Virus genome (UHGV): UHGV-0136597
Length of the DNA stretch: 16,082 nt
Origin: a virus
Direction: 5' to 3' (one strand)
How positions within the stretch are numbered: position 1 is the stretch's first letter; every line of letters begins with the position of its first letter. This document shows, in pieces, positions 2,758 to 15,502 of the stretch. Both the position numbers and the translations under genes were made by a program. The notes below the pieces were generated by a model that was given only the letters and a program-made list of their open reading frames with translations, did no database searches and had not been told where the DNA came from.

Positions 2758-3246
2758 TTAATAGCCATCAGAAGTAATCGCTACAGATTTCAATCCCTCA
2801 ATGTCATCCTTGGACAGGGCGAACCATTCACCGTGCTTTCTCTTTGCGGCAAATTTGCGATGAAGCATGTTTTCAGTTTCTCTTCCACCAGGGATCAGGC
2901 ACTCAAGCTTCAAGCAGTCTGGTCCAGAGTTGCCAAGCGATTTGATGCGTTGTGGAATGTTGGATGAATACCCAATTTTGGTTAGCCCAGTTTTCTTCGA
3001 TGACAAAACGTATACCTGAGGAGGTTCTTTTCTCTGGTCTTCCATTACACGTCTCATTGTTGCCATAAGTCCGCCGTGCATCAGCATTTCAACAAAGAAC
3101 GCTGACCGAACACCTGACGACTTAAGCATGCCAGAAAATTCACTTGCCAATTCCATTAACTCTGCGATGTTTTCAGGAACTTTTTGGCAGTTATCTTCCT
3201 TGTATAAGGAAATCATTCTTTGAAGCTTTTCTTCTAATTGGTTCAT
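2758..3246 (-). CDS. T5orf172-domain (GIY-YIG-like) protein with an unknown N-terminal domain
   Basis: C-terminal half (VYVLSSKKTGLTKIGYSSNIPQRIKSL...LHRKFAAKRKHGEWFAL) fits the T5orf172 pattern as I recall it. Start placed at the ATG at 3246 (MNQLEEK; AAGG-containing SD upstream); the ORF-track start at 3282 is a GTG. GC content is visibly lower than the flanks. Confidence 0.7.
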   Translation of the reverse strand: MNQLEEKLQRMISLYKEDNCQKVPENIAELMELASEFSGMLKSSGVRSAFFVEMLMHGGLMATMRRVMEDQRKEPPQVYVLSSKKTGLTKIGYSSNIPQRIKSLGNSGPDCLKLECLIPGGRETENMLHRKFAAKRKHGEWFALSKDDIEGLKSVAITSDGY

Positions 3247-3395
3247 AGCGTCTTTACCTTTTAGAAAGTGAGCCTGTCTCACAGAAAAGCCGCCCCGAGA
3301 TGGTCGCCACCATATACGGCAGTTCTCAGGCTCAACTTTCTGAAAGGCTCGGGTGATGTAATATGCGCGTGAGATGCGCTGTGAAATTCAGATGT

Positions 3396-3451: not shown

Positions 3452-3913
3452 TTATTTCAGGCATTGCGTCCTGATGTATTCCTGCAGGTAGTTAACCTGC
3501 GCGGTTATCTTGTCGATTCCACTTCGGAGACGGTAATAATTGAGTTCAGCATCTGCTGTAAGTCCTGGGCTTTCTCCATCGCCCATGCTGCTGGCTCCGG
3601 TCGTTGACTTTGCACAGGTGGCGGCGACTTGCAGGCGCTTACGCCCAGCAGAAACATCAGCACGGAGACTTTCGATAGTCGCGTTAGCATCAGCAAGCTC
3701 CTTTGTATATCTGGCATCGAGTTCTGCTACGTCACGTTGACGCTTCTGCATGTCAGAGATCGTCGCCATAGCCGAATCTAATGCCATAGCGTTTTCGTCG
3801 CGCTGTTTTTTGTATTCAATGGCTTTATTGTGGTAATGATTAGCTGACCAGACGAGAGAACCGAATAAAGTCAGGAGGAAAGCAGAAATAACCAGCTTAT
3901 AGCGAAGTTTCAT
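3452..3913 (-). CDS. Rz: Rz i-spanin
   Basis: Start [27 protein letters not shown] with GGGGTGG SD, overlapping the end of R as in lambda. N-terminal TM segment and coiled-coil-like body; ends ...YLQEYIRTQCLK, resembling lambda Rz. The ORF-track N-terminal extension is rejected. Confidence 0.85.
   Translation of the reverse strand: MKLRYKLVISAFLLTLFGSLVWSANHYHNKAIEYKKQRDENAMALDSAMATISDMQKRQRDVAELDARYTKELADANATIESLRADVSAGRKRLQVAATCAKSTTGASSMGDGESPGLTADAELNYYRLRSGIDKITAQVNYLQEYIRTQCLK
3505..3690 (-). CDS. Rz1: Rz1 o-spanin lipoprotein, embedded in the +1 frame of Rz
   Basis: Embedded ORF starting MLTRLSKVSVLMFLLGVSAC with lipobox-like VSAC, then a proline-rich mature region (KSPPPVQSQRPEPAAW), matching lambda Rz1 architecture. 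Confidence 0.65.
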   Translation of the reverse strand: MLTRLSKVSVLMFLLGVSACKSPPPVQSQRPEPAAWAMEKAQDLQQMLNSIITVSEVESTR

Positions 3914-4373
3914 TAACCACCCCGCCAGCTTCTTTGAATTTGGCAATCAGACTATCGATCTTGTGTTCATACTGACCGTAGCCAGCACCGGGCAATGAAG
4001 CCCAAATATTGCTGCAACGATCAATAGCCTGACGGATATCGCCACGATCAATCATCGGTAAAGCGCCACGCTCTTTAATCTGCTGCAGTGCAACAGCGTC
4101 CTGGCTTTTCGGAGAGAAGTCTTTCAGGCCAAGCTGCTTGCGGTAGGCATCCCACCAACGGGAAAGAAGCTGATAGCGACCGGCTGCTGTTGATTTGAGT
4201 TTTGGGTTTAGCGTGACAAGTTTGCGAGGGTGATCTGAGTAATCAGTGAATAGCTCTCCGCCTACAATGACGTCATAACCATGATTTCTGGTTTTCTGCC
4301 GTCCGTTATCAGTTCCCTCCGACCACGCCAGCATATCGAGGAACGCCTTACGTTGATTATTGATTTCCACCAT
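3897..4373 (-). CDS. R: Endolysin R (lambda-type lytic transglycosylase)
   Basis: 158 aa beginning [53 protein letters not shown], near-identical to lambda R as I recall it. Confidence 0.95.
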
Positions 4374-4680
4374 CTTCTACTCCGGCTTTTTTAGCAGCGA
4401 AGCGTTTGATAAGCGAACCAATCGAGTCAGTACCGATGTAGCCGATGAACACGCTCGTTATATAAGCGAGATTGCTACTTAGTCCGGCGAGGTCGAGAAG
4501 ATCACGAATGAACCAGGCGATAATGGCGCACATCGTTGCGTCGATTACTGTTTTTGTAAACGCACCGCCATTATATCTGCCGCGAAGGTACGCCATTGCA
4601 AACGCAAGGATTGCCCCGATGCCTTGTTCCTTTGCCGCGAGAATGGCGGCTAACAGGTCATTTTTTTCTGGCATCTTCAT
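4357..4680 (-). CDS. S: Holin/antiholin S (dual start Met1/Met3)
   Basis: 107 aa beginning [39 protein letters not shown], near-identical to lambda S. The MKM dual-start motif is present; 3' end overlaps R by 17 nt. Confidence 0.95.
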
Positions 4681-4922: not shown

Positions 4923-4998
4923 TGGTGCTGGTTAACGGACTTGAACCGCTACCCATTCGCTTACAAGGCGACTGCTCTACCATTGGAGCTAAACCAGC
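4923..4998 (-). tRNA. tRNA-Thr (anticodon UGU), phage-encoded
   Basis: Minus-strand 76 nt: 7-bp acceptor stem GCTGGTT/AACCAGC, D-arm GCTC-CAATGGTA-GAGC, anticodon loop CUUGUAA, 5-nt variable loop, T-arm AGCGG-TTCAAGT-CCGTT, discriminator A and encoded CCA. One G27-A43 mismatch. Hand-folded, not run through a tRNA finder. Confidence 0.55.
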
Positions 4999-5003
4999 AT
5001 ATT

Positions 5004-5078
5004 TGGCGGGACAGCGTGGACTCGAACCACGATAAGAAGGTTAACAGCCTTCCGTAATGACCTTTATACGACTGACCC
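5004..5078 (-). tRNA. tRNA-Asn (anticodon GUU), phage-encoded, atypical
   Basis: Minus-strand 75 nt: anticodon arm GAAGG-CUGUUAA-CCTTC, T-arm CGTGG-TTCGAGT-CCACG, encoded CCA. The acceptor stem has a T-T mismatch and the D-stem is only 3 bp, so it may be divergent or partly degenerate. Confidence 0.45.
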
Positions 5079-5124
5079 AAATAAAAAAAGCCACCGTTGC
5101 AACTTAAGAGTCACTAACGGCAGC
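5079..5124 (-). terminator. Hairpin plus U-tract (terminator-like) between the HNH gene and the tRNAs
   Basis: On the minus strand, GCTGCCGTT...AACGGTGGC (9 bp with 2 G-U pairs, large loop) followed by TTTTTTTATTT, starting 8 nt after the HNH stop and abutting the tRNA-Asn 5' end. Confidence 0.4.
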
Positions 5125-5132
5125 TTATATCT

Positions 5133-5645
5133 TTAAACGGTATGATATTTCATTCTGGCGGCCTCAAAAGCCACAGCGGCAAGTTCGGCAGTGTCATGGT
5201 ATCCAAGGTTAATACACTTTCCAGACGCATTAATTATTGCTCTCCATTTCCCGTACTTAGCATCCCAAGACACGCCACGGTATCCAGATTTATTATTCTT
5301 CTGAATTTTCCTGTTTTGCATATTTTCGGAATGAGTGACAAGACGAAGATTTGATATCCGGTTATCTGTTCTTACCCTGTTGATGTGATCAATAAAACCA
5401 TCGGGCATGGTGCCATAAACAATCAACCATGCCAGTCTGTGAGCAGGGTATGCTTTACCATTAATCATAATCATTAAATACCCATCAGAATTTATTGATG
5501 AGCATTTCTTGAAAGCAAAACGAGAGTTCCATGTCAAAGTGGTCCTCTCTCTCCCCTGCCTCCATCTCCAGTGAAAGTCGCCTGATGATGGATTGTAATC
5601 AACAACAGAAAGCACCATTTCTGGCGTTAATTTTATTTCTTTCAT
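5133..5645 (-). CDS. HNH homing-type endonuclease with C-terminal AP2 DNA-binding domain
   Basis: 170 aa with HNH motif (GFIDHINRVRTDNRISNLRLVTHSENMQNR) and AP2-like segment (SGYRGVSWDAKYGKWRAIINASGKCINLGYHDTAELAAVAFEAARMKY). AT-rich relative to the flanks. Confidence 0.85.
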   Translation of the reverse strand: MKEIKLTPEMVLSVVDYNPSSGDFHWRWRQGRERTTLTWNSRFAFKKCSSINSDGYLMIMINGKAYPAHRLAWLIVYGTMPDGFIDHINRVRTDNRISNLRLVTHSENMQNRKIQKNNKSGYRGVSWDAKYGKWRAIINASGKCINLGYHDTAELAAVAFEAARMKYHTV

Positions 5646-7968: not shown

Positions 7969-8147
7969 CTTGTTTTCCTCGCACGTTCTCTAAGCCACCG
8001 GATATCCCACAGGTGAGCCGTGTAATTGAAGGTTTTTACGTCAGATTCTTTTGGGATTGGCTTGCGTTTATTTCTGGAGCGCTTCGTTGGAAGGTATTTG
8101 CAGTTTTCGCAGATGATGTCGGTGATACTTCGTCGCTGTCGTCTCAT
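7965..8147 (-). CDS. ninE: NinE
   Basis: 60 aa from the internal Met of the listed [63 protein letters not shown], matching lambda NinE as recalled. Start overlaps the methyltransferase stop. Confidence 0.8.
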
Positions 8148-8671
8148 GCTGCCCTCCTGACGCCCTGCCCGATCGCCATCAATGCCGCTTTGGATACGGT
8201 AGTAAACATCCGTCGAGGACTGATGAACGGTCGCCAAATCAGCAGCATGGAACCTTTGCTGTTTCCCTTCTTCTCCAGCCCTGTCGATGGTTCGATAAAA
8301 TTAATCCGTCCATCAGTGATGATGCGAACTTCGTCAATACTCTCCAGAGCCTTGCTGAACCATCCGACAGACATATCCTCTGGCACAAGCATCACTACCG
8401 TCTGTCGCTGTTGTATGCACTGCTCAGCGGCTTTTTCCACCCACGGCCTGATATTGCTGTACGGTGGGTTATTCCAGATTGCACCGTGGCTTATCCACTC
8501 AGAATTTAGCGCGTCGTCGGCCTCAGTTAACCAGTGAGCGCACAGAGCATTTTTGTCGCTCGCTGCCGAATCCAGCCAGAATCCAAACTCAACATCCAGT
8601 GCATCAAAAAGCCAAAGCGGCGTTTGCCAGCAGTCCTTGTCGTGTGCTGGCGTATTTGATTTGATAGTCAT
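8144..8671 (-). CDS. Phage DNA N6-adenine methyltransferase (Dam-like)
   Basis: Start [26 protein letters not shown] (ATGA overlap with the ninB stop) and an NPPY catalytic motif ([10 protein letters not shown]). Not part of the lambda nin region. Confidence 0.8.
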
Positions 8672-9114
8672 GCAGCCTTCCCTTTTCGTTGTGACCATTC
8701 ATACTCTCTCCGGGAGTCATCACTCCACCGCACGTTGCGCTCTGAGCCGAACCAAAACATGATTTCGATAAGCTCAGTCATGCTGGCCTTTCGCATTTTG
8801 CTGGTACGCACGCCAAGCATGACAACGCCACCATCGATACCAGGCACACTTCGTTGCTCCAGTTTTTTGGTCTTAAGCCACAGGGCAGTGAACAGGTCTT
8901 TCCAGTCTTCCGGCGCCAGCCGTTGACCATGCCATAGCACCTGACGGGAAACGTCCTGAAGCATCGGCCACATACGGTCGTTCTGCGCTTTGGTTCGCTT
9001 AGGTTCTTTGACGTGGACTTCGTGAGGTGACTTGTCGTCGATCGGAAGTGAGAGTATTGCGTCTATGGCGTTATTTCTGATTGCTTCGTTGCGAAGCATG
9101 TATATTTGCTTCAT
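8668..9114 (-). CDS. ninB: NinB (Orf-family recombination mediator)
   Basis: 148 aa with DVSRQVLWHGQRL and ERNVRWSDDSRREYEW segments paralleling lambda NinB (DVSRQVEWHGRWL, ERGVKWSDEARLALEW) as recalled. Confidence 0.85.
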   Translation of the reverse strand: MKQIYMLRNEAIRNNAIDAILSLPIDDKSPHEVHVKEPKRTKAQNDRMWPMLQDVSRQVLWHGQRLAPEDWKDLFTALWLKTKKLEQRSVPGIDGGVVMLGVRTSKMRKASMTELIEIMFWFGSERNVRWSDDSRREYEWSQRKGKAA

Positions 9115-9550
9115 CGAAATTCTTCTCTTTAATTCCAGCGGCTCTGATAGCTTTCATTACTACAATTACCGTTTTGTCACGCCCATCCATATAGCCCATC
9201 GCATAAGCGCCTTCTTCACCATCTTTCCAGAAGTCGTCATTCGACTCGGGCCAGTCGATATCCAGTTCAATAGCCGCTCGCGATGCCTGCCACGTTTGCC
9301 AGTGGCCTTGAACATCGTCCATCACGTATTGACCACCAATATTACCGCTGCCAATTTCATGGTGATTTTCAGGGTAACGGATAAGGTCTGAAGATTCGCC
9401 CCCACGTCGTAACCAACTCTCTTCAAACTGGCATCTGCTTTCGTCATCTTTCATAAGGCAGTCACATTCAATAAAAATCGGCTCTCCCCAAGGAGTAGAA
9501 CCTCCGCTATCACACATTCCTGTGTTATTGCACTTTTGGCACTTGCTCAC
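9071..9550 (-). CDS. Hypothetical Cys-rich acidic protein (ren slot)
   Basis: 159-aa ORF, GTG start with GGAGG SD. N-terminal CxxC...C...CxC cluster (CQKCNNTGMCDSGG...IECDC) suggests a zinc ribbon. Overlaps the ninB start by 44 nt. No family recognised. Confidence 0.5.
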   Translation of the reverse strand: MSKCQKCNNTGMCDSGGSTPWGEPIFIECDCLMKDDESRCQFEESWLRRGGESSDLIRYPENHHEIGSGNIGGQYVMDDVQGHWQTWQASRAAIELDIDWPESNDDFWKDGEEGAYAMGYMDGRDKTVIVVMKAIRAAGIKEKNFDEANIHASQRSNQK

Positions 9551-9562
9551 ATTAACCTCCGA

Positions 9563-9769
9563 TTAACTCACAAAACGCCACGCCATTTTTGCTACAGCGA
9601 CAGGCATAACACCGATAATCACCCAGACAAATGCAGCGCCAAACAACGTATACCATGGGTCTTTACCGTCATTCACAAGACGAATGTAGCTATGCAGAAC
9701 AATAAAAAACGTCATAAGAATCCATCCAACGCCAACGCATTTGAGTGCGACGAGCATAAACTTAACCAC
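9563..9769 (-). CDS. Hypothetical small membrane protein (2 predicted TM segments)
   Basis: 68-aa ORF, GTG start preceded by GGGGGAGAG SD (the same SD context that precedes ninB in lambda). Two hydrophobic stretches. Immediately downstream of the tR2-like terminator. Confidence 0.5.
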   Translation of the reverse strand: MVKFMLVALKCVGVGWILMTFFIVLHSYIRLVNDGKDPWYTLFGAAFVWVIIGVMPVAVAKMAWRFVS

Positions 9770-9783
9770 GATTTACTCTCCCC

Positions 9784-9816
9784 CAAATAAAAAGGCCTGC
9801 GATTACCAGCAGGCCT
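9784..9816 (-). terminator. Rho-independent terminator, lambda tR2-like
   Basis: On the minus strand, AGGCCTGC-TGGTAATC-GCAGGCCT followed by TTTTTATTT, about 30 nt after the primase-helicase stop. Matches lambda tR2 as I recall it. Confidence 0.75.
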
Positions 9817-9845
9817 GTTACAAGCTCAGTGATGTAGATGGTCAT

Positions 9846-11726
9846 TTAATACTCCGTCACGTTTTCCTGTCGCCACGCCTCGTCATATTCCGATTTCGGC
9901 ATATTGGCGATGTAGCTATATGGCGATCCTGATTCAAGTTGCAGGAACTGGTGCGATTGCTCGTCAAGGAACAACGGGACACCACCTTCCCAACCTTCGC
10001 CGTTACGTTGTTTTTCAAGCATCAAAACAGATGCCGGAGATGCCAGTAGCTGTTCGTCCTTCTCTGACATCTTTTCACCACTCTGAACTCTCTGTAACGC
10101 TCTCTCGCGAGCCTTGTTACGCCAGATGATGAAAAGGTTGTCTGTCAGGTCTGTTATCGCTCCAGAGCCTTTTACGTCCATTTTCCCGGTTGGTTTTTCT
10201 TCGCTGTCTCCTTTTCGCGAGTGAGTAACGAGAATGACGTGGGAGTTTGTTTTGTTTTTGAAGTCGCAAATCGAGTCAACAAACGCCTTCTGCCCGTTAT
10301 AGTCATCGTCGCCTATGCCACATTTCATCAGGCTGTCGATGATGAATAACTGGATCCCGTATCGGCGGCGAGCGTAGTCGAATATTTCGATCAGCCTGTC
10401 GGCTTTCGCCGTTCCGGTCAGACCAAACACCCAAAGTCTTTCGTCATAAAATTTAAATGCAGAGTCAATTTCCAGCACTGGCGGCATCTTGCAGCACGTC
10501 GCCTGACGGGTAAGGCGCTTAAGGAGAATACCAGGCTTCAGCTCAAGTGACGCGATGCACGTCTTCACACCCTGACGCATTGCCTCAAGTGCCATATGCC
10601 CGACAACCTCCGTTTTTCCGTGACCGTTCACACCATTGACCAGCGTCAACTCGGCCTCACGGAACTGGAATTTATCTGCCAGAGATTCCCACGGTGGATT
10701 AAACAGATACTGCTGCTTGCCGTAGAAAGCGTTGATAGTGTCCTGATAAAACTCTCGCGCGCTGTAGAGTTCTTCAGGGTCGAAGTAGGATGCCGTGCCG
10801 ATGTACTGCCAGATTTCATCCTCGGTAACACCGTTCATCAGGCATTCGTTGATGTCTTTGTACGGCAGAGTAACAAGACGGCAACGATGTTCACCGAGTC
10901 GGCTTGCGATTTCCCTTGCGGCTTCACGACCAACATCATCAACGTCCATCGAGATGAATATTTCCTCAAACCTGTCGAGGTTGTGATACTCAAACTCAAT
11001 CCACTGTTGCTTAGCGCCTTTCCCGCCACCAAACGGCACAGATAACGCCGAGATGCCGTATTGCGCATAGCTCATACAATCAATTTCGCCTTCGCAAAGT
11101 ACAACCGCCCTCACGCCAGCGTCCAGAGCCTGCCATCCGAACAGACAAGGTTCGCAATCACCTTCTGCCATAATGACTTTCTTCCCGTCCGGTCGCTCAG
11201 TGCTGATTCGCTTGACCTGCAACAACTCACCATCGCGTTTGTACGGAAGCACCAGTGCATCAAGTTCTCGTTCTCCATTCCACACCTTGCCGCTGACAAC
11301 CTCGTAGCGCTTTACGACTTCTGGCGATATGCCACGCGATTGCAGGTACTCAAGATGGGATTCTGTTCTGGTAACGTAGCGGGCGATTTTCTTGCGGTCA
11401 GGTCTGGAGAATTTCTTCTCACGTTTGGCATCGAAATGGTGATCGTCATCCTTGATTCCGAGAAAGGCTTTCGCTTCCTGCATAGCCTGATGCAGGTTAA
11501 TTCCACGACATGCCATCCACAAATCAAGCATGTCACCGCCGTCTCCCTCAGCGAAATCAGCCCATTTTTTCTTGCCGCTAAGGTTGACCTTAAGGCTGTT
11601 TCCCTTGTCACCGTTAACGTTACCGGCAACCCACTCATGCCCCTCTTTCTTGCCGTTTGGCAACAGGTGCGGAGCCACCCTGTCAACCTGCGCCCAAAGC
11701 AGGTCGCTAAGTTCACTTGGCGTCAT
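9846..11726 (-). CDS. Bifunctional DNA primase/helicase (TOPRIM primase domain plus T7 gp4-like helicase domain)
   Basis: 626 aa with a TOPRIM-like acidic cluster (VVLCEGEIDCMSYAQ), Walker A (NGVNGHGKT), Walker B (LFIIDSLMKCG) and a C-terminal GSGAITDLTDNLFIIWRN segment resembling T7 gp4 helicase. Occupies the position of lambda P. Confidence 0.85.
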   Translation of the reverse strand: MTPSELSDLLWAQVDRVAPHLLPNGKKEGHEWVAGNVNGDKGNSLKVNLSGKKKWADFAEGDGGDMLDLWMACRGINLHQAMQEAKAFLGIKDDDHHFDAKREKKFSRPDRKKIARYVTRTESHLEYLQSRGISPEVVKRYEVVSGKVWNGERELDALVLPYKRDGELLQVKRISTERPDGKKVIMAEGDCEPCLFGWQALDAGVRAVVLCEGEIDCMSYAQYGISALSVPFGGGKGAKQQWIEFEYHNLDRFEEIFISMDVDDVGREAAREIASRLGEHRCRLVTLPYKDINECLMNGVTEDEIWQYIGTASYFDPEELYSAREFYQDTINAFYGKQQYLFNPPWESLADKFQFREAELTLVNGVNGHGKTEVVGHMALEAMRQGVKTCIASLELKPGILLKRLTRQATCCKMPPVLEIDSAFKFYDERLWVFGLTGTAKADRLIEIFDYARRRYGIQLFIIDSLMKCGIGDDDYNGQKAFVDSICDFKNKTNSHVILVTHSRKGDSEEKPTGKMDVKGSGAITDLTDNLFIIWRNKARERALQRVQSGEKMSEKDEQLLASPASVLMLEKQRNGEGWEGGVPLFLDEQSHQFLQLESGSPYSYIANMPKSEYDEAWRQENVTEY

Positions 11727-11833: not shown

Positions 11834-12694
11834 TCACCTGTCGAAAAACACGTAGCCAGTTTTCGATACGGTGATTGCGGATGATGGTTTGGATTGTGGT
11901 TGAATAGTTTCTGGCTTCTCGTCGTTCCAGCGTTGACCGTTCAGGTAGCTCGATGGTAACAACCTGTCGAATCCGAACTGCTTACCATTCCTGCATGCGA
12001 TGTCTTCTGCCAGCATCGTGGCAAACTCGCTTGCCGTACCCCTGGTAGTTTTACGCCATTCCCTGAACTGTGTTCTGAATGCCGAAGCTGCGTTTTTCTT
12101 CCCGGCCTTCCGCATGCCTGCACACCAGAATATTTCCTCGAATGCCTTGTCGGTTTCTTCGTGACGGTCAGGTGATTTTTCACACTCCGTCCGAACACTT
12201 TCGGACATAGTGTTTTTATTATTACTTTTTTCTTTTGTAATAGTTTCTTTTGTGTGTCCCTGTTTTGGTGACAGCGCTGTCACCGTTTTGGTGACACTTT
12301 TTGTCACCAATGCAGTGACATTATCACCAGAGTAGTGACACCCTTCGATTTGCCATTCCTCGATGTTCTTGTTAGGCCCGATTTGCTGGCCTTCGCGAAG
12401 GATAACCTTCATCGCGATAAGCTCATTCTTGGCCTTGTTTACCTTCTGTCTTGGCAGCCTGGTAATTTGAGCTAACTGACTATCAGAGATGCGATCCATC
12501 TTTTTACCGTAGCCGTATGTTTTACGGCATATGGCGTGGGCAACCTTGCTCTGATTTTTCGTTAAATCTGCGCCGATAAGCTCTTCATACAGGGCATTTG
12601 CAAGACGGGTATAACCATCTTCAACTTCTGCCACACGACGCTCCACAGGCCGTTGTGAAGGCCTTAAATGTGTTACGGTTGCAAGATTACTCAT
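11834..12694 (-). CDS. O: Replication initiator, lambda O-like N-terminal domain, with the origin inside the gene
   Basis: N-terminal region ([54 protein letters not shown]...[11 protein letters not shown]) parallels lambda O as recalled. Iterons and an AT-rich block lie within the central coding region. C-terminal domain is not lambda-like. Confidence 0.85.
12210..12340. repeat. Origin of replication: about four 19-20 bp palindromic iterons (TGTCACC-N6-GTGACA type) plus adjacent AT-rich block
   Basis: Iteron copies at about 12256-12272, 12278-12296, 12302-12320 and 12321-12340, flanked at 12210-12258 by a T/A-rich stretch, all inside the O-like ORF. Same architecture as lambda ori. Confidence 0.6.
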
Positions 12695-12867: not shown

Positions 12868-13146
12868 TTAGGCCTCGAAGAATTCGCCGTTCTTCGGGGC
12901 TTTTTCTTTTGTCAGCATTCTGGCTACTTTCTTAGCCAGTTCCGCCAACTCCTCGTCTTCAACACCCCATTCAAGAACAGCCAGAAGCATTCCCATTTTT
13001 GGGATGAAGCTGTCTTTCCATCGCGAAATTTGCGATTCATTGATCCCTAATGCATCAGCAACCTTTCGCTGACCACGTACAGCAATTCGATTTAGGATGT
13101 TGCTTGTAATTGCATTCGCTTTCTTGCGAGTACTTGTAAGTTGCAT
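12868..13146 (-). CDS. cII: Transcriptional activator CII
   Basis: 92 aa from the internal ATG (MQLTSTRKK...), which carries the lambda-like cII translation-initiation context (AAGGAAATACTTACATATG). Contains QISRWK...[13 protein letters not shown], matching lambda CII. The 121-aa ORF-track version would run through nutR and is rejected. Confidence 0.85.
12873..12910 (+). terminator. Plus-strand rho-independent terminator overlapping the cII 3' end (oop-like antisense RNA terminator)
   Basis: CCTCGAAGAA-TTCGCCG-TTCTTCGGGG (10-bp stem) followed by CTTTTTCTTTT, antisense to the last cII codons, in the position of the lambda oop terminator. Promoter not confidently located. Confidence 0.55.
13100..13113 (+). 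promoter_or_regulatory. Candidate CII-binding site (TTGC-N6-TTGC) of a pRE-like promoter directed toward cI
   Basis: TTGCTTGTAATTGC on the plus strand inside the cII N-terminal coding region, oriented to transcribe antisense through cro toward cI, as for lambda pRE. Confidence 0.35.
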
Positions 13147-13203
13147 ATGTAAGTATTTCCTTAACAAATAAGAAGTTATGCGCACCAACTGATGCGCGTT
13201 GTA

Positions 13204-13248
13204 TTCCCGCATTTCGGCGGGAATAAGGACCATGACTGTTAAAGAGCG
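13204..13248 (-). promoter_or_regulatory. nutR (boxA plus boxB) between cro and cII
   Basis: Minus strand reads CGCTCTTTAACA (boxA consensus), then a spacer, then the hairpin TTCCCGC-CGAAAT-GCGGGAA (boxB). The same boxB hairpin recurs in nutL. Confidence 0.55.
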
Positions 13249-13254
13249 GTGTTA

Positions 13255-13449
13255 CTATTTGTTTTTCTTGTTGCTTGGGAAAGGACGAACTTCCTCTCCA
13301 ATCACACTGCCATCAGGCTTTACCGTAACCATAATGTTACGGCCTGCCAGAATGGCCTTGCTGATAGCGCACTGGATTACACCAAAGTCACTGGCTGCTT
13401 TAGCCTGTCCATGGATTTTGGCGTAATCGGCAAGTGTCATTCGAATCAT
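13255..13449 (-). CDS. cro: Cro repressor
   Basis: 64 aa from the third Met ([33 protein letters not shown]...SNKKNK), paralleling lambda Cro. GGAGAG SD is correctly spaced for this ATG. Confidence 0.85.
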
Positions 13450-13480
13450 ATGCACTCTCCGTTATTAACCATGAACAAAG

Positions 13481-13555: not shown

Positions 13556-14272
13556 ATGGAAAATAAAAAATCACTGACGACAGAACAGCTCGAAGACGCT
13601 AAGCGGCTTAAGGCTTTGTATGAGTCAAAAAAGAAAGAATTGGGAATAACCCAATACTCAATCGCTGATGAACTGGGTATCACCCAAGGAGCGGTAGGGC
13701 ATTATCTTAATGGCAGAAACGCGCTAAACGTTGAGGTTGCATCTGGTTTTGCACGATTGTTGCAAGTCTCAATTGCTGATTTTAGCCAGTCAATTGCTGC
13801 CAAGGTTGCAGAACAGGCAGAAAGCCTTAAGAGCGATGCCAACGTAAGGTATGCAGGGGAATACAGAGCAGGAAAGAGGTATCCGGTGTTAAGCAGTATC
13901 CAGGCTGGCTCGTGGTGTGAAGCATGCGAACCATACACCATTAAAGACATAGATGTTTGGCTTGAGTCTGACGCGCATATTCAAGGTAATGCGTTTTGGC
14001 TTAAAGTGGAAGGTGATTCAATGACGGCACCGGTTGGGTTAAGCATTCCAGAGGGAACATTCGTTCTTTTCGATACCGGAAGGGAGGCGATCAACGGCAG
14101 CTTGGTCATAGCAAAACTTTCTGACTCTAACGAAGCAACATTCAAGAAGCTGATAATCGACGGCGGAAATAAATACCTCAAGGGACTTAATCCTGCATGG
14201 CCTCTCGTGCCAATCAATGGAAACTGCAAGATTATAGGCGTTGCAATTGAGACAAAACTAAGGCTGGTTTGA
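13556..14272 (+). CDS. cI: CI prophage repressor (HTH N-terminal domain plus S24/LexA-like autopeptidase C-terminal domain)
   Basis: 238 aa with an HTH segment (ITQYSIADELGITQGAVGHYLNG) and a C-terminal domain (FWLKVEGDSMTAPVGLSIPEGTFVLF...ATFKKLIIDGGNKYLKGLNPAWP) resembling the P22 c2 / lambda cI cleavage domain. Divergent from cro across the operators. Confidence 0.9.
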   Translation: MENKKSLTTEQLEDAKRLKALYESKKKELGITQYSIADELGITQGAVGHYLNGRNALNVEVASGFARLLQVSIADFSQSIAAKVAEQAESLKSDANVRYAGEYRAGKRYPVLSSIQAGSWCEACEPYTIKDIDVWLESDAHIQGNAFWLKVEGDSMTAPVGLSIPEGTFVLFDTGREAINGSLVIAKLSDSNEATFKKLIIDGGNKYLKGLNPAWPLVPINGNCKIIGVAIETKLRLV

Positions 14273-14918: not shown

Positions 14919-15229
14919 ACCAAAGAGTAGTTGGCTTTGGGGTGGCGTGAAGTGCAGCTGCACGACGGCAACCGGAAGATAAGCACCCGGCGCGTCACCG
15001 CCAAAGTCAATTCCATAGGCGAAATGCAGCCGCCAAACATAGCCAATGCTGCACATGCAACAGGAGGATTTATGTGAATGCATAACTTCAAAACCGAGGT
15101 TAATTAAATCTCTCGATCCGAGCATTGACCTATTAGGTGGCGAGATGCTCTTTCTGCCCCTCAGTTCGAGGGGCCAGAAACCACTTTGCAATCACTATCA
15201 ATTCCAAAGTTGTTTCATCGGAGGTCAAC

Positions 15230-15502
15230 ATGACAGTAGTCATTACATATCTGGCTGACGATAACGCCAGAAATCGCCGCAGAGCACGCAGACAGGCTCA
15301 ACGTGAACAGGCAATGCAAGAGCAGCGACTGGCGCGAAAAATTGCGCTAAAGCTCTCTGGTTGCGTCAGAGCAGACAAAGCAGCATCACTTGGCAGCCTT
15401 CTCAGCAAGAAGGCAGATGAATGCAGTGGAAGTATTTGCCTGCCAAACGTAGCCATTTACTCGGCAGGCTACCGGAAATCAAAACAACTGACGGCGAGGT
15501 AA
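15230..15502 (+). CDS. N: N-like transcription antiterminator (P22 gene 24-like) with an arginine-rich motif
   Basis: 90 aa from the ATG at 15230 (GGAGG SD 6 nt upstream): MTVVITYLADDNARNRRRARRQAQREQ...LPNVAIYSAGYRKSKQLTAR. The arginine-rich N-terminus and C-terminal tail resemble P22 gp24 as recalled. The ORF-track N-terminal extension is rejected. Confidence 0.8.
   Translation: MTVVITYLADDNARNRRRARRQAQREQAMQEQRLARKIALKLSGCVRADKAASLGSLLSKKADECSGSICLPNVAIYSAGYRKSKQLTAR

Follow-up and report, generated by a model that had tools for sequence, protein, structure and literature searches.

Two accessory genes of catalogued phage families between the tR2 terminator and ninB of a lambdoid prophage segment

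Background

In bacteriophage lambda, the replication gene P is followed by ren (40280-40570), the terminator tR2 and ninB, and the interval between tR2 and ninB consists of the end of ninA alone. In phage H-19B, ren precedes the terminator, which is followed by homologs of both genes treated here, and in phage HK620, whose record lists 'ninA, similar to P22 NinA' with tR2 labelled inside ninA, ninB comes directly after a homolog of the first of them. Here we describe the corresponding region of UHGV virus genome UHGV-0136597, of which a stretch of 16,082 nucleotides (nt; hereafter the window) was analysed. Between its tR2-like terminator and ninB the window encodes two proteins of 68 and 159 amino acids, which we call orf68 and orf159. 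A reading made from the letters of this DNA alone (the sequence-only reading) had placed the two genes where lambda has ren, had recognised neither of them, and had proposed that they might act as a pair in exclusion escape or host modulation.

The two genes are real and belong to catalogued families, and searches of profiles, folds, defence libraries and the literature yielded no role for either. The result for the window is mostly corrective: the genes are real, they are ordinary, catalogued accessory cassettes, and they constitute neither a replacement of ren nor a two-gene system. We propose that they are two independent, dispensable accessory cassettes of the early operon transcribed from pR, located in the slot between tR2 and ninB, with delayed-early expression that depends on N, and directed at the host or at competitors. 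To this reading as a whole we assign a probability of roughly 0.5; the part of it that concerns identity, i.e. the anatomy of the locus and the family assignments, is very likely correct.

Results and discussion

Two genuine genes of catalogued families

Both open reading frames (ORFs), predicted earlier on the minus strand, exist beyond chance: in related viral loci orf68 is represented by 38 distinct DNA alleles, all of them 207 nt long and all starting with GTG, and orf159 matches phrog_343 (E = 8.2e-33 over residues 27-152). Among the 38 orf68 alleles, variable sites are distributed over the three codon positions as 35/21/44, and the ratio of nonsynonymous to synonymous polymorphism (pN/pS) is 0.53, which indicates that the orf68 frame is under purifying selection. 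The coding-type substitutions in this frame, the fixed length of the alleles and the presence of homologs on the minus strand are also the reasons why the minus-strand reading is preferred; two plus-strand ORFs (9032-9391 and 9536-9790) were treated on this evidence as antisense artefacts.

The orf68 protein matches phrog_1165 over its entire length (E = 1e-38, residues 1-68 of 68), and NCBI already lists the exact protein for E. coli under the name 'hypothetical protein'. A large protein search retrieved 59 clusters of homologs, all from Escherichia or Salmonella and almost all of exactly 68 amino acids, none of which carries a Pfam domain or a name; 45 homologs could be aligned without internal gaps. 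The family consists of two clades, which are approximately 55% identical to each other; common to both are the length, the arrangement of hydrophobic residues and the nearly invariant C-terminus WVIIGVMPVAVAKMAWRFVS.

For orf159, residues F42, W84, W87, S90, R91, G139, K141 and K143 fall into alignment columns that are invariant, or nearly so, in the Phage_phiTE_015 family (PF26207; phiTE_015 in the following). Membership was established via precomputed labels on homologs: all listed homologs of orf159 are labelled PF26207, and the Prokaryotic Genome Annotation Pipeline (PGAP) has given the name 'phiTE_015 family protein' to some E. coli copies. The Pfam copy used for our local scans predates PF26207, which explains why these scans were empty for orf159.

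The earlier statement that neither gene is recognisable was therefore incorrect with respect to family (phrog_1165 for orf68, phrog_343/PF26207 for orf159) and holds with respect to function; the profile and structure searches proposed at that time as a check recovered the families and no known role. Local scans of both proteins and several homologs against Pfam and NCBIfam gave nothing significant, the defence models of PADLOC-DB contained no family matching orf68 or orf159 at E values up to 1, and a sequence profile search of the PDB with the family profile produced no match. Among the anti-defence proteins considered (Ocr, ArdA, Gad, Tad, Acr), nothing relevant was found in the PDB by sequence or by fold, an ArdA-like match in BFVD (E = 2.1) being noise, and in the literature on the nin region, on phiTE_015/PF26207 and on mEp213 we found no study of either gene.

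Position relative to ninA, tR2 and ren

From the ninA start codon, across the tR2 hairpin and as far as GGGGGAGAG, the window and lambda have nearly the same sequence, and an alignment of the window, lambda, HK620 and H-19B showed the tR2 sequence to be invariant; the terminator scan placed the site at 9816-9793 (minus strand). Directly after GGGGGAGAG follows ninB in lambda and orf68 in the window, HK620, H-19B and 683R2, so that orf68 is indeed preceded by the Shine-Dalgarno context that stands before lambda ninB, as the sequence-only reading had noticed. The same reading had missed the 27-amino-acid ninA ORF that overlaps the start of orf68. This ORF begins directly after the TAA stop codon of the primase-helicase gene, spans the tR2 hairpin, and ends with a TAA that overlaps the GTG of orf68 (GTGGTTAA). 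Identification of orf68 itself as NinA was rejected, as ninA of HK620 is a separate 27-amino-acid ORF spanning tR2, whose overlap with the orf68 match is 2 nt; the name 'ninA' beside orf68 matches in database tables is an effect of overlaps of 2-8 nt.

The hydrophobic ninA ORF contains the entire tR2 hairpin and its U-tract ahead of the stop codon. Transcripts ended at tR2 would for this reason lack a stop codon for ninA, as non-stop messages do, and formation of the hairpin could be disturbed by ribosomes at work on ninA.

A position of the two genes in the place of ren does not agree with these data. Lambda ren is located upstream of tR2, and ren coexists with both genes, not only in H-19B: the arrangement P-Ren-tR2-orf68-phiTE_015-NinB occurs in many prophage loci. 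No ren homolog was detected in the window (best tblastn match of Ren, E = 2.0), and a blastp comparison of Ren with the two ORFs gave E = 17 and no real alignment. A Ren-like identity of orf68 or orf159 was dropped for these reasons, namely the lack of similarity, the location of Ren upstream of tR2 and its coexistence with both genes.

Frequent neighbours, separable genes

Two samples of 80 viral loci each were compared, one selected by the presence of a phiTE_015 gene, the other by the presence of orf68; the samples overlap and are skewed to close relatives. All 80 phiTE_015-selected loci show a constant order of replication module, ninA/tR2, variable small genes, phiTE_015 and NinB, the replication module being either lambda P-Ren, one of two DnaB types, or a primase-helicase. 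orf68 is present in 63 of these loci and absent in 17. Among the orf68-selected loci the phiTE_015 gene comes directly after orf68 in 63/80 and after other genes in 6/80, and in 11/80 there is none and ninB follows directly, as it does in HK620. One and the same orf159 allele can stand behind either orf68 clade (approximately 90% and 55% identity), and an allele with the N-terminal zinc-binding (Zn) module, which is putative and described below, likewise occurs with both. Near-identical orf159 alleles stand behind all four types of replication module and before two NinB alleles; co-variation of the orf159 allele with the replication module or with the NinB allele was looked for in 80 loci and not found. 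The association between orf68 and phiTE_015 is frequent yet separable, and shows no co-variation at the level of alleles.

The idea of a dedicated two-gene pair is not supported, since each gene occurs alone, other genes intervene and the alleles assort independently. A dedicated two-component unit, with orf68 as membrane anchor or sensor and orf159 as cytoplasmic partner serving exclusion escape or host modulation, would be in line with the adjacency of the genes across a spacer of 12 nt and with their being neighbours in 63 of the 80 loci of either sample; nevertheless, we consider it improbable. Apart from the solitary copies (in HK620 and in 17/80 and 11/80 loci) and the unrelated genes found between the two in some loci, identical orf159 alleles are found in free combination with the two orf68 clades, and phiTE_015 is spread over Pseudomonas and virulent phages, whereas orf68 homologs were found only in Escherichia and Salmonella. 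Given the overlap of the two samples and their bias in favour of close relatives, linkage suffices to account for the co-occurrence. Absence of an orf159-type gene from lambda and HK620 indicates, moreover, that orf159 is dispensable.

That the slot is a variable region, as had been proposed, was borne out by the many different small ORFs which it contains in relatives. At least four of them are hydrophobic and unrelated. The list includes two-helix hydrophobic proteins of 63 and 60 amino acids, N-terminally hydrophobic proteins of 108 and 90 amino acids, a 66-amino-acid ORF that by eye resembles a helix-turn-helix protein, a cysteine-rich ORF of 67 and a basic ORF of 69-88 amino acids (examples of such cargo: locus L043 4537-4970, L046 4463-4986, L047 4495-4986, L073 4391-4996). 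Seven of the 80 phiTE_015-selected loci (L043, L052, L059, L074, L084, L085, L090; approximately 4220-4540 and 5001-5370) have tandem phiTE_015 paralogues, which differ in their variable cassettes and have two small membrane-protein ORFs between them.

orf68, a predicted membrane hairpin

The two transmembrane segments attributed to orf68 from sequence were confirmed as hydrophobic segments by Kyte-Doolittle analysis (19-residue means), with peaks of 2.25 at residues 6-24 and 2.38 at residues 42-60 and a short polar loop between them. A cytoplasmic location of both ends is suggested by the positive charges that orf68 carries close to its N-terminus and, with K61 and R65, at its C-terminus. orf68 is probably an inner-membrane hairpin with this predicted topology and would act on a membrane target.

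Codons 47-68 of orf68 (9563-9631, minus strand) are conserved also at synonymous sites (pS of 0.14, compared to 0.34-0.48 upstream), which may point to a constraint at the DNA level, for example a recombination joint or an embedded signal, beside the protein constraint in the last third of the gene.

Class II holins are similar to orf68 in size and two-helix layout, and in relatives the slot is rich in other small hydrophobic ORFs, so that a holin- or pinholin-like protein or a toxic membrane peptide affecting lysis timing or membrane potential has to be considered. We regard this explanation as very unlikely: orf68 matches no holin family of Pfam at E values up to 1 and no NCBIfam family, it is located in the early operon and not in the lysis cassette, the window encodes a lambda-S-type holin and Rz of its own, and no dual-start motif is conserved across the two clades.

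orf159, a phiTE_015 core with an N-terminal four-cysteine module

The description of orf159 as an acidic protein with an N-terminal CxxC...CxC cluster, whose gene overlaps ninB by 44 nt, was confirmed in both respects. The isoelectric point (pI) is 4.67 and the net charge approximately -12, the four cysteines are C4, C7, C29 and C31 (C4-x2-C7...C29-x-C31), and the overlap is evident from the coordinates and from the alignment. The protein consists of three parts, a cysteine module, the phiTE_015 core, in which a conserved helical frame is combined with two variable cassettes, and a tail (Table 1).

Ten diverged copies of the module share C4, C7, C29 and C31 as well as D14-S15-G16 and P20-W21-G22 as invariant residues. 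In tblastn searches, homologs of the module with 53-66% identity were found at the N-termini of otherwise unrelated proteins, namely gp78 of Seurat (179 amino acids), proteins of OddieOddie and SLUR25, and gp127 of PAK_P3 (403 amino acids) and its relatives. A beta-hairpin is predicted for the module by AlphaFold2 (AF2) with modest confidence; considering this prediction and the invariance of the cysteines, metal binding is putative. The first knuckle, CQKCNNTG in orf159 and CPKCGGSG in PAK_P3, resembles CxxCxGxG. However, its likeness to DnaJ and anti-TRAP (3lcz) was not significant in a profile search of the PDB (E = 0.47 and 1.6, 11 residues), and Pfam DnaJ_CXXCXGXG (PF00684) gave no match in orf159 and E = 0.54 for the PAK_P3 homolog.

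In PAK_P3 gp127 (L009 2471-3682) a second cysteine-rich stretch (CSTCHDQG...CPDC) is present, followed by a long region rich in alanine and glutamate. Stand-alone phiTE_015 genes occur in the related lytic Pseudomonas phages PAK_P2 and JG004; together with the module of PAK_P3, this indicates that both building blocks of orf159 circulate in lytic Pseudomonas phages.

Translation might alternatively start at Met33, giving a phiTE_015 protein of 127 amino acids preceded by a 96-nt untranslated leader or remnant. Indeed, Met33 aligns with the start methionine of common 125-amino-acid alleles (MDESRKQFEE...), and some database entries with the Zn module begin at Met33 or Met12 (P0037, P0021). We nevertheless attach little probability to this alternative, as GGAGG precedes the GTG and no comparable site precedes Met33, there is no stop codon between module and core, and the only module substitution among close alleles is a change of the start codon from GTG to TTG (L033), which is still a start codon. 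Furthermore, diverged fusions keep all four cysteines, some of them (P0195, P0118-P0120) join module to core with no intervening methionine, Seurat gp78 and PAK_P3 gp127 likewise begin with the module, and a collection of 15 billion proteins (Logan/ENA) contains the exact 159-amino-acid protein and lacks the exact 127-amino-acid form. The strong ribosome binding site, the lack of an intervening stop, the start codon swap, the methionine-less fusions and the entry in the collection together argue for translation of the module as part of orf159. In the same collection the exact 159-amino-acid protein is found on two contigs only, one of which is this window, and relatives of 125, 138 and 144 amino acids are common; the orf159 allele is thus a rare recombinant of common parts.

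At the C-terminal end, alleles of the 683R2 type terminate in '...GVKVKE' and a stop codon just before ninB, the usual ending being '...IKVKE*'. This stop has been lost in the window by a change of GGAGTAAC to GAATTTC, and orf159 ends 44 nt inside ninB, in a different frame; PGAP has annotated an identical overlap in E. coli MB46. The tail is disordered in the AF2 model, with a predicted local distance difference test (pLDDT) value below 50. Judged by the aligned sequences, it is an accidental read-through product.

A large family with reassorting cassettes

With a profile of close homologs, 900 representatives of phiTE_015 were found at the 50% identity level, and a profile of distant members retrieved 5,426 clusters at 90% identity, which belong to Enterobacterales and Pseudomonas and are all annotated as 'hypothetical'. 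Typical members have 90-105 amino acids and are acidic (median pI 4.9, net charge -6). Their common pattern begins with M-x-x-SR-x-QFE-x-W, followed by a variable stretch of 17-42 amino acids (V1) and W-x-x-WQASRAAIE-x-ELP, and ends, after a second variable stretch of 18-54 amino acids (V2), with AI-x-AAG-[IL]-KVK. Clustering of the variable stretches of 299 sequences at 60% identity resulted in 124 V1 types and 117 V2 types in 211 combinations. For 24 sets made up of two V1 and two V2 types, every one of the four possible pairings was observed, which requires recombination between the cassettes. N-terminal modules are optional: 26 of 337 members have the cysteine module and 59 of 337 a module of the type 'MRWAIKHKSGR...', and a few carry both. 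The family is also represented in virulent phages (PAK_P2/JG004-like, Jersey-like, swi2, Bas79), in a Pseudomonas putida prophage, where the gene lies between DnaB and NinB (followed by NinG), and in a Pseudomonas aeruginosa prophage, where it belongs to the early-left accessory region and is close to Lar and int. One database protein, P0232, is a deletion product in which the N-terminal half of a phiTE_015 protein is joined to the C-terminus of Dam and ninB has been lost.

This distribution bears on the possibility that orf159 is an accessory protein of replication or recombination, whose zinc ribbon binds nucleic acid or the helicase and which acts together with NinB. Its place between helicase and ninB, in enteric prophages as well as in the P. 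putida prophage, would fit such a role, and so would the fact that several other nin genes act on DNA. Zinc ribbons are, in addition, common in primases and DNA-binding proteins. We still consider this role unlikely. The acidity of the protein (pI 4.7) disfavours direct DNA binding, 311 of 337 family members lack the Zn module, and the family has a copy near int/Lar in the P. aeruginosa prophage, extends to virulent phages that are unrelated, and is absent from lambda and HK620. The alleles co-vary neither with the replication module nor with the NinB allele; near-identical alleles across module types and NinB alleles argue against a specific partnership of orf159 with the replication or recombination proteins of the phage.

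Expression and possible roles

Within 8600-10100, no promoter-like sites were detected (0, compared to 1.8 expected). As the genes are located behind tR2 and the phage encodes N, they would be expressed only in lytic growth, after N has allowed RNA polymerase to pass tR2. Translation may be chained along the transcript, from the helicase stop to the ninA ATG, from the ninA stop to the orf68 GTG, by way of GGAGG to orf159, and from the end of orf159 to ninB; tight packing is, according to published work, typical of nin genes.

Under the reading favoured here, that of two independent cassettes, orf68 would insert into the inner membrane and act on a target there, and orf159 would be a soluble, zinc-stabilised, protein-binding factor whose V1 and V2 cassettes set target specificity. 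The target of orf159 would be a protein of the host or of a competing phage and not the phage's own replication and recombination machinery. We infer tentatively that counter-defence or host takeover is the most plausible class of function; orf159 is read in this way because it is small, acidic, early, dispensable, sometimes duplicated, reassorted and housed in a hotspot.

A more specific, and rather doubtful, version of this idea would regard phiTE_015 proteins as early binders diversified by recombination, in which a helical frame carries swappable V1 and V2 cassettes and optionally a zinc-ribbon adaptor, and which temperate and virulent phages of Enterobacterales and Pseudomonas could retarget to variable host or rival factors, for example an immune protein. 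The slot between tR2 and ninB would then be a counter-defence hotspot, with small membrane proteins such as orf68 as a second class of cargo. phiTE_015 is a very large family of temperate and virulent phages in which a frame with reassorting cassettes, occasional tandem paralogues and optional modules represents the pattern expected of an arms race. If its members are inhibitors of host or rival factors, the slot would be a compact and easily mined source of counter-defence specificities, and lambdoid prophages would be connected to lytic phages of Pseudomonas and E. coli by the zinc module which they have in common. Three points deserve to be retained: the two-cassette recombination of phiTE_015, the portable four-cysteine module and the abundance of small membrane proteins in the slot.

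Layout of the window

The window represents a lambdoid prophage segment read in reverse, with the genes from Cro to Rz on the minus strand (Table 1). Past the Dam methyltransferase gene, this strand encodes NinE, NinG, NinH, a NinI-like phosphatase, Q, an HNH endonuclease, two tRNAs, a holin, an endolysin and Rz. ninB overlaps the downstream Dam gene by 31 nt (8668-8698, minus strand). The interval from Q to the holin contains the two tRNA genes as well as the HNH endonuclease, which has an AP2 domain, at 4926-5078 and 5133-5645 (both minus strand), and an ORF with a T5orf172/MUG113 domain is found at 2758-3282 (minus strand), near the small terminase. A search for RNA families (Rfam) across the region yielded no matches.

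Table 1 Features of the window, with positions counted from its first letter (aa, amino acids)
Feature	Position	Strand	Evidence
orf68, 68 aa, basic (pI 9.7), GTG start, two hydrophobic helices, phrog_1165	9563..9769	-	
orf159, 159 aa, GTG start	9071..9550	-	phrog_343 match
Shine-Dalgarno GGAGG, 5 nt upstream of orf159 GTG, 2 nt past orf68 stop	9556..9560	-	sequence; 683R2 alignment
Four-Cys (CxxC...CxC) putative zinc-binding module, orf159 codons 1-35	9446..9550	-	
Phage_phiTE_015 (PF26207)/phrog_343 core, orf159 codons 36-143; frame SRxQFE, WxxWQASRAAIE, AG-I-K-x-K	9122..9445	-	
Variable cassette V1, residues 44-83, commonest type, seen with 22 V2 types	9302..9421	-	AF2 pLDDT ~90
Variable cassette V2, residues 97-134, DIDWPESNDD... 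type, seen with 20 V1 types	9149..9262	-	low AF2 confidence
16-aa read-through tail (NFDEANIHASQRSNQK) and stop, residues 144-159, judged by alignment	9071..9121	-	DNA alignment with 683R2, MB46, H-19B
ninA micro-ORF, 27 aa (MTIYITELVTGLLVIAGLFIWGRVNRG)	9762..9845	-	phrog_5907 E 1e-18; near-identity to lambda
tR2-like intrinsic terminator: 8-bp G+C-rich stem, 8-nt loop, U5AU3 tract	9783..9816	-	terminator scan, fold -17.1 kcal/mol
Toprim/DnaB-like primase-helicase (replication module, upstream neighbour)	9846..11726	-	Pfam Toprim_2 3e-12, AAA_25, DnaB_C; ORF list
ninB (Orf recombination mediator), downstream neighbour	8668..9114	-	Pfam NinB E 1.6e-48
Dam methyltransferase, downstream of ninB	8144-8698	-	
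Replication protein O	11834-12694	-	
CII	12868-13233	-	
Cro	13255-13455	-	
CI	13556-14272	+	
N	15137-15502	+	N peptide domain
Lambda-S-type holin	4357-4680		
Rz	3452-3946		

Comparison with known systems

The closest relatives of orf68 are the phrog_1165 genes of HK620 (unannotated) and of mEp213, 683R2 and SPN9CC ('hypothetical'), which agree with it in length, in the GTG start and in their place right after ninA/tR2, and from which it shows no notable difference. Compared to the phiTE_015 family, orf159 adds the four-cysteine module, present in approximately 8% of the sampled members, and the 16-amino-acid tail, and its last motif is IKEK instead of IKVK. NinA, known from P22, HK620 and lambda, has its own copy in the window directly upstream of orf68 and overlapping it, so that orf68 begins at the ninA stop. 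With lambda Ren, the protein for escape from Rex exclusion, the two genes share only the general neighbourhood at the end of the replication module and the non-essential nature; Ren differs in its location upstream of tR2, in having no sequence similarity to either protein and in being found together with both of them in relatives. Finally, in contrast to the DnaJ zinc finger and to anti-TRAP of Bacillus subtilis, the second ligand pair of orf159 is CxC and not CxxCxGxG, yet anti-TRAP is an earlier example of a small zinc-ribbon protein whose activity consists purely in the binding of another protein.

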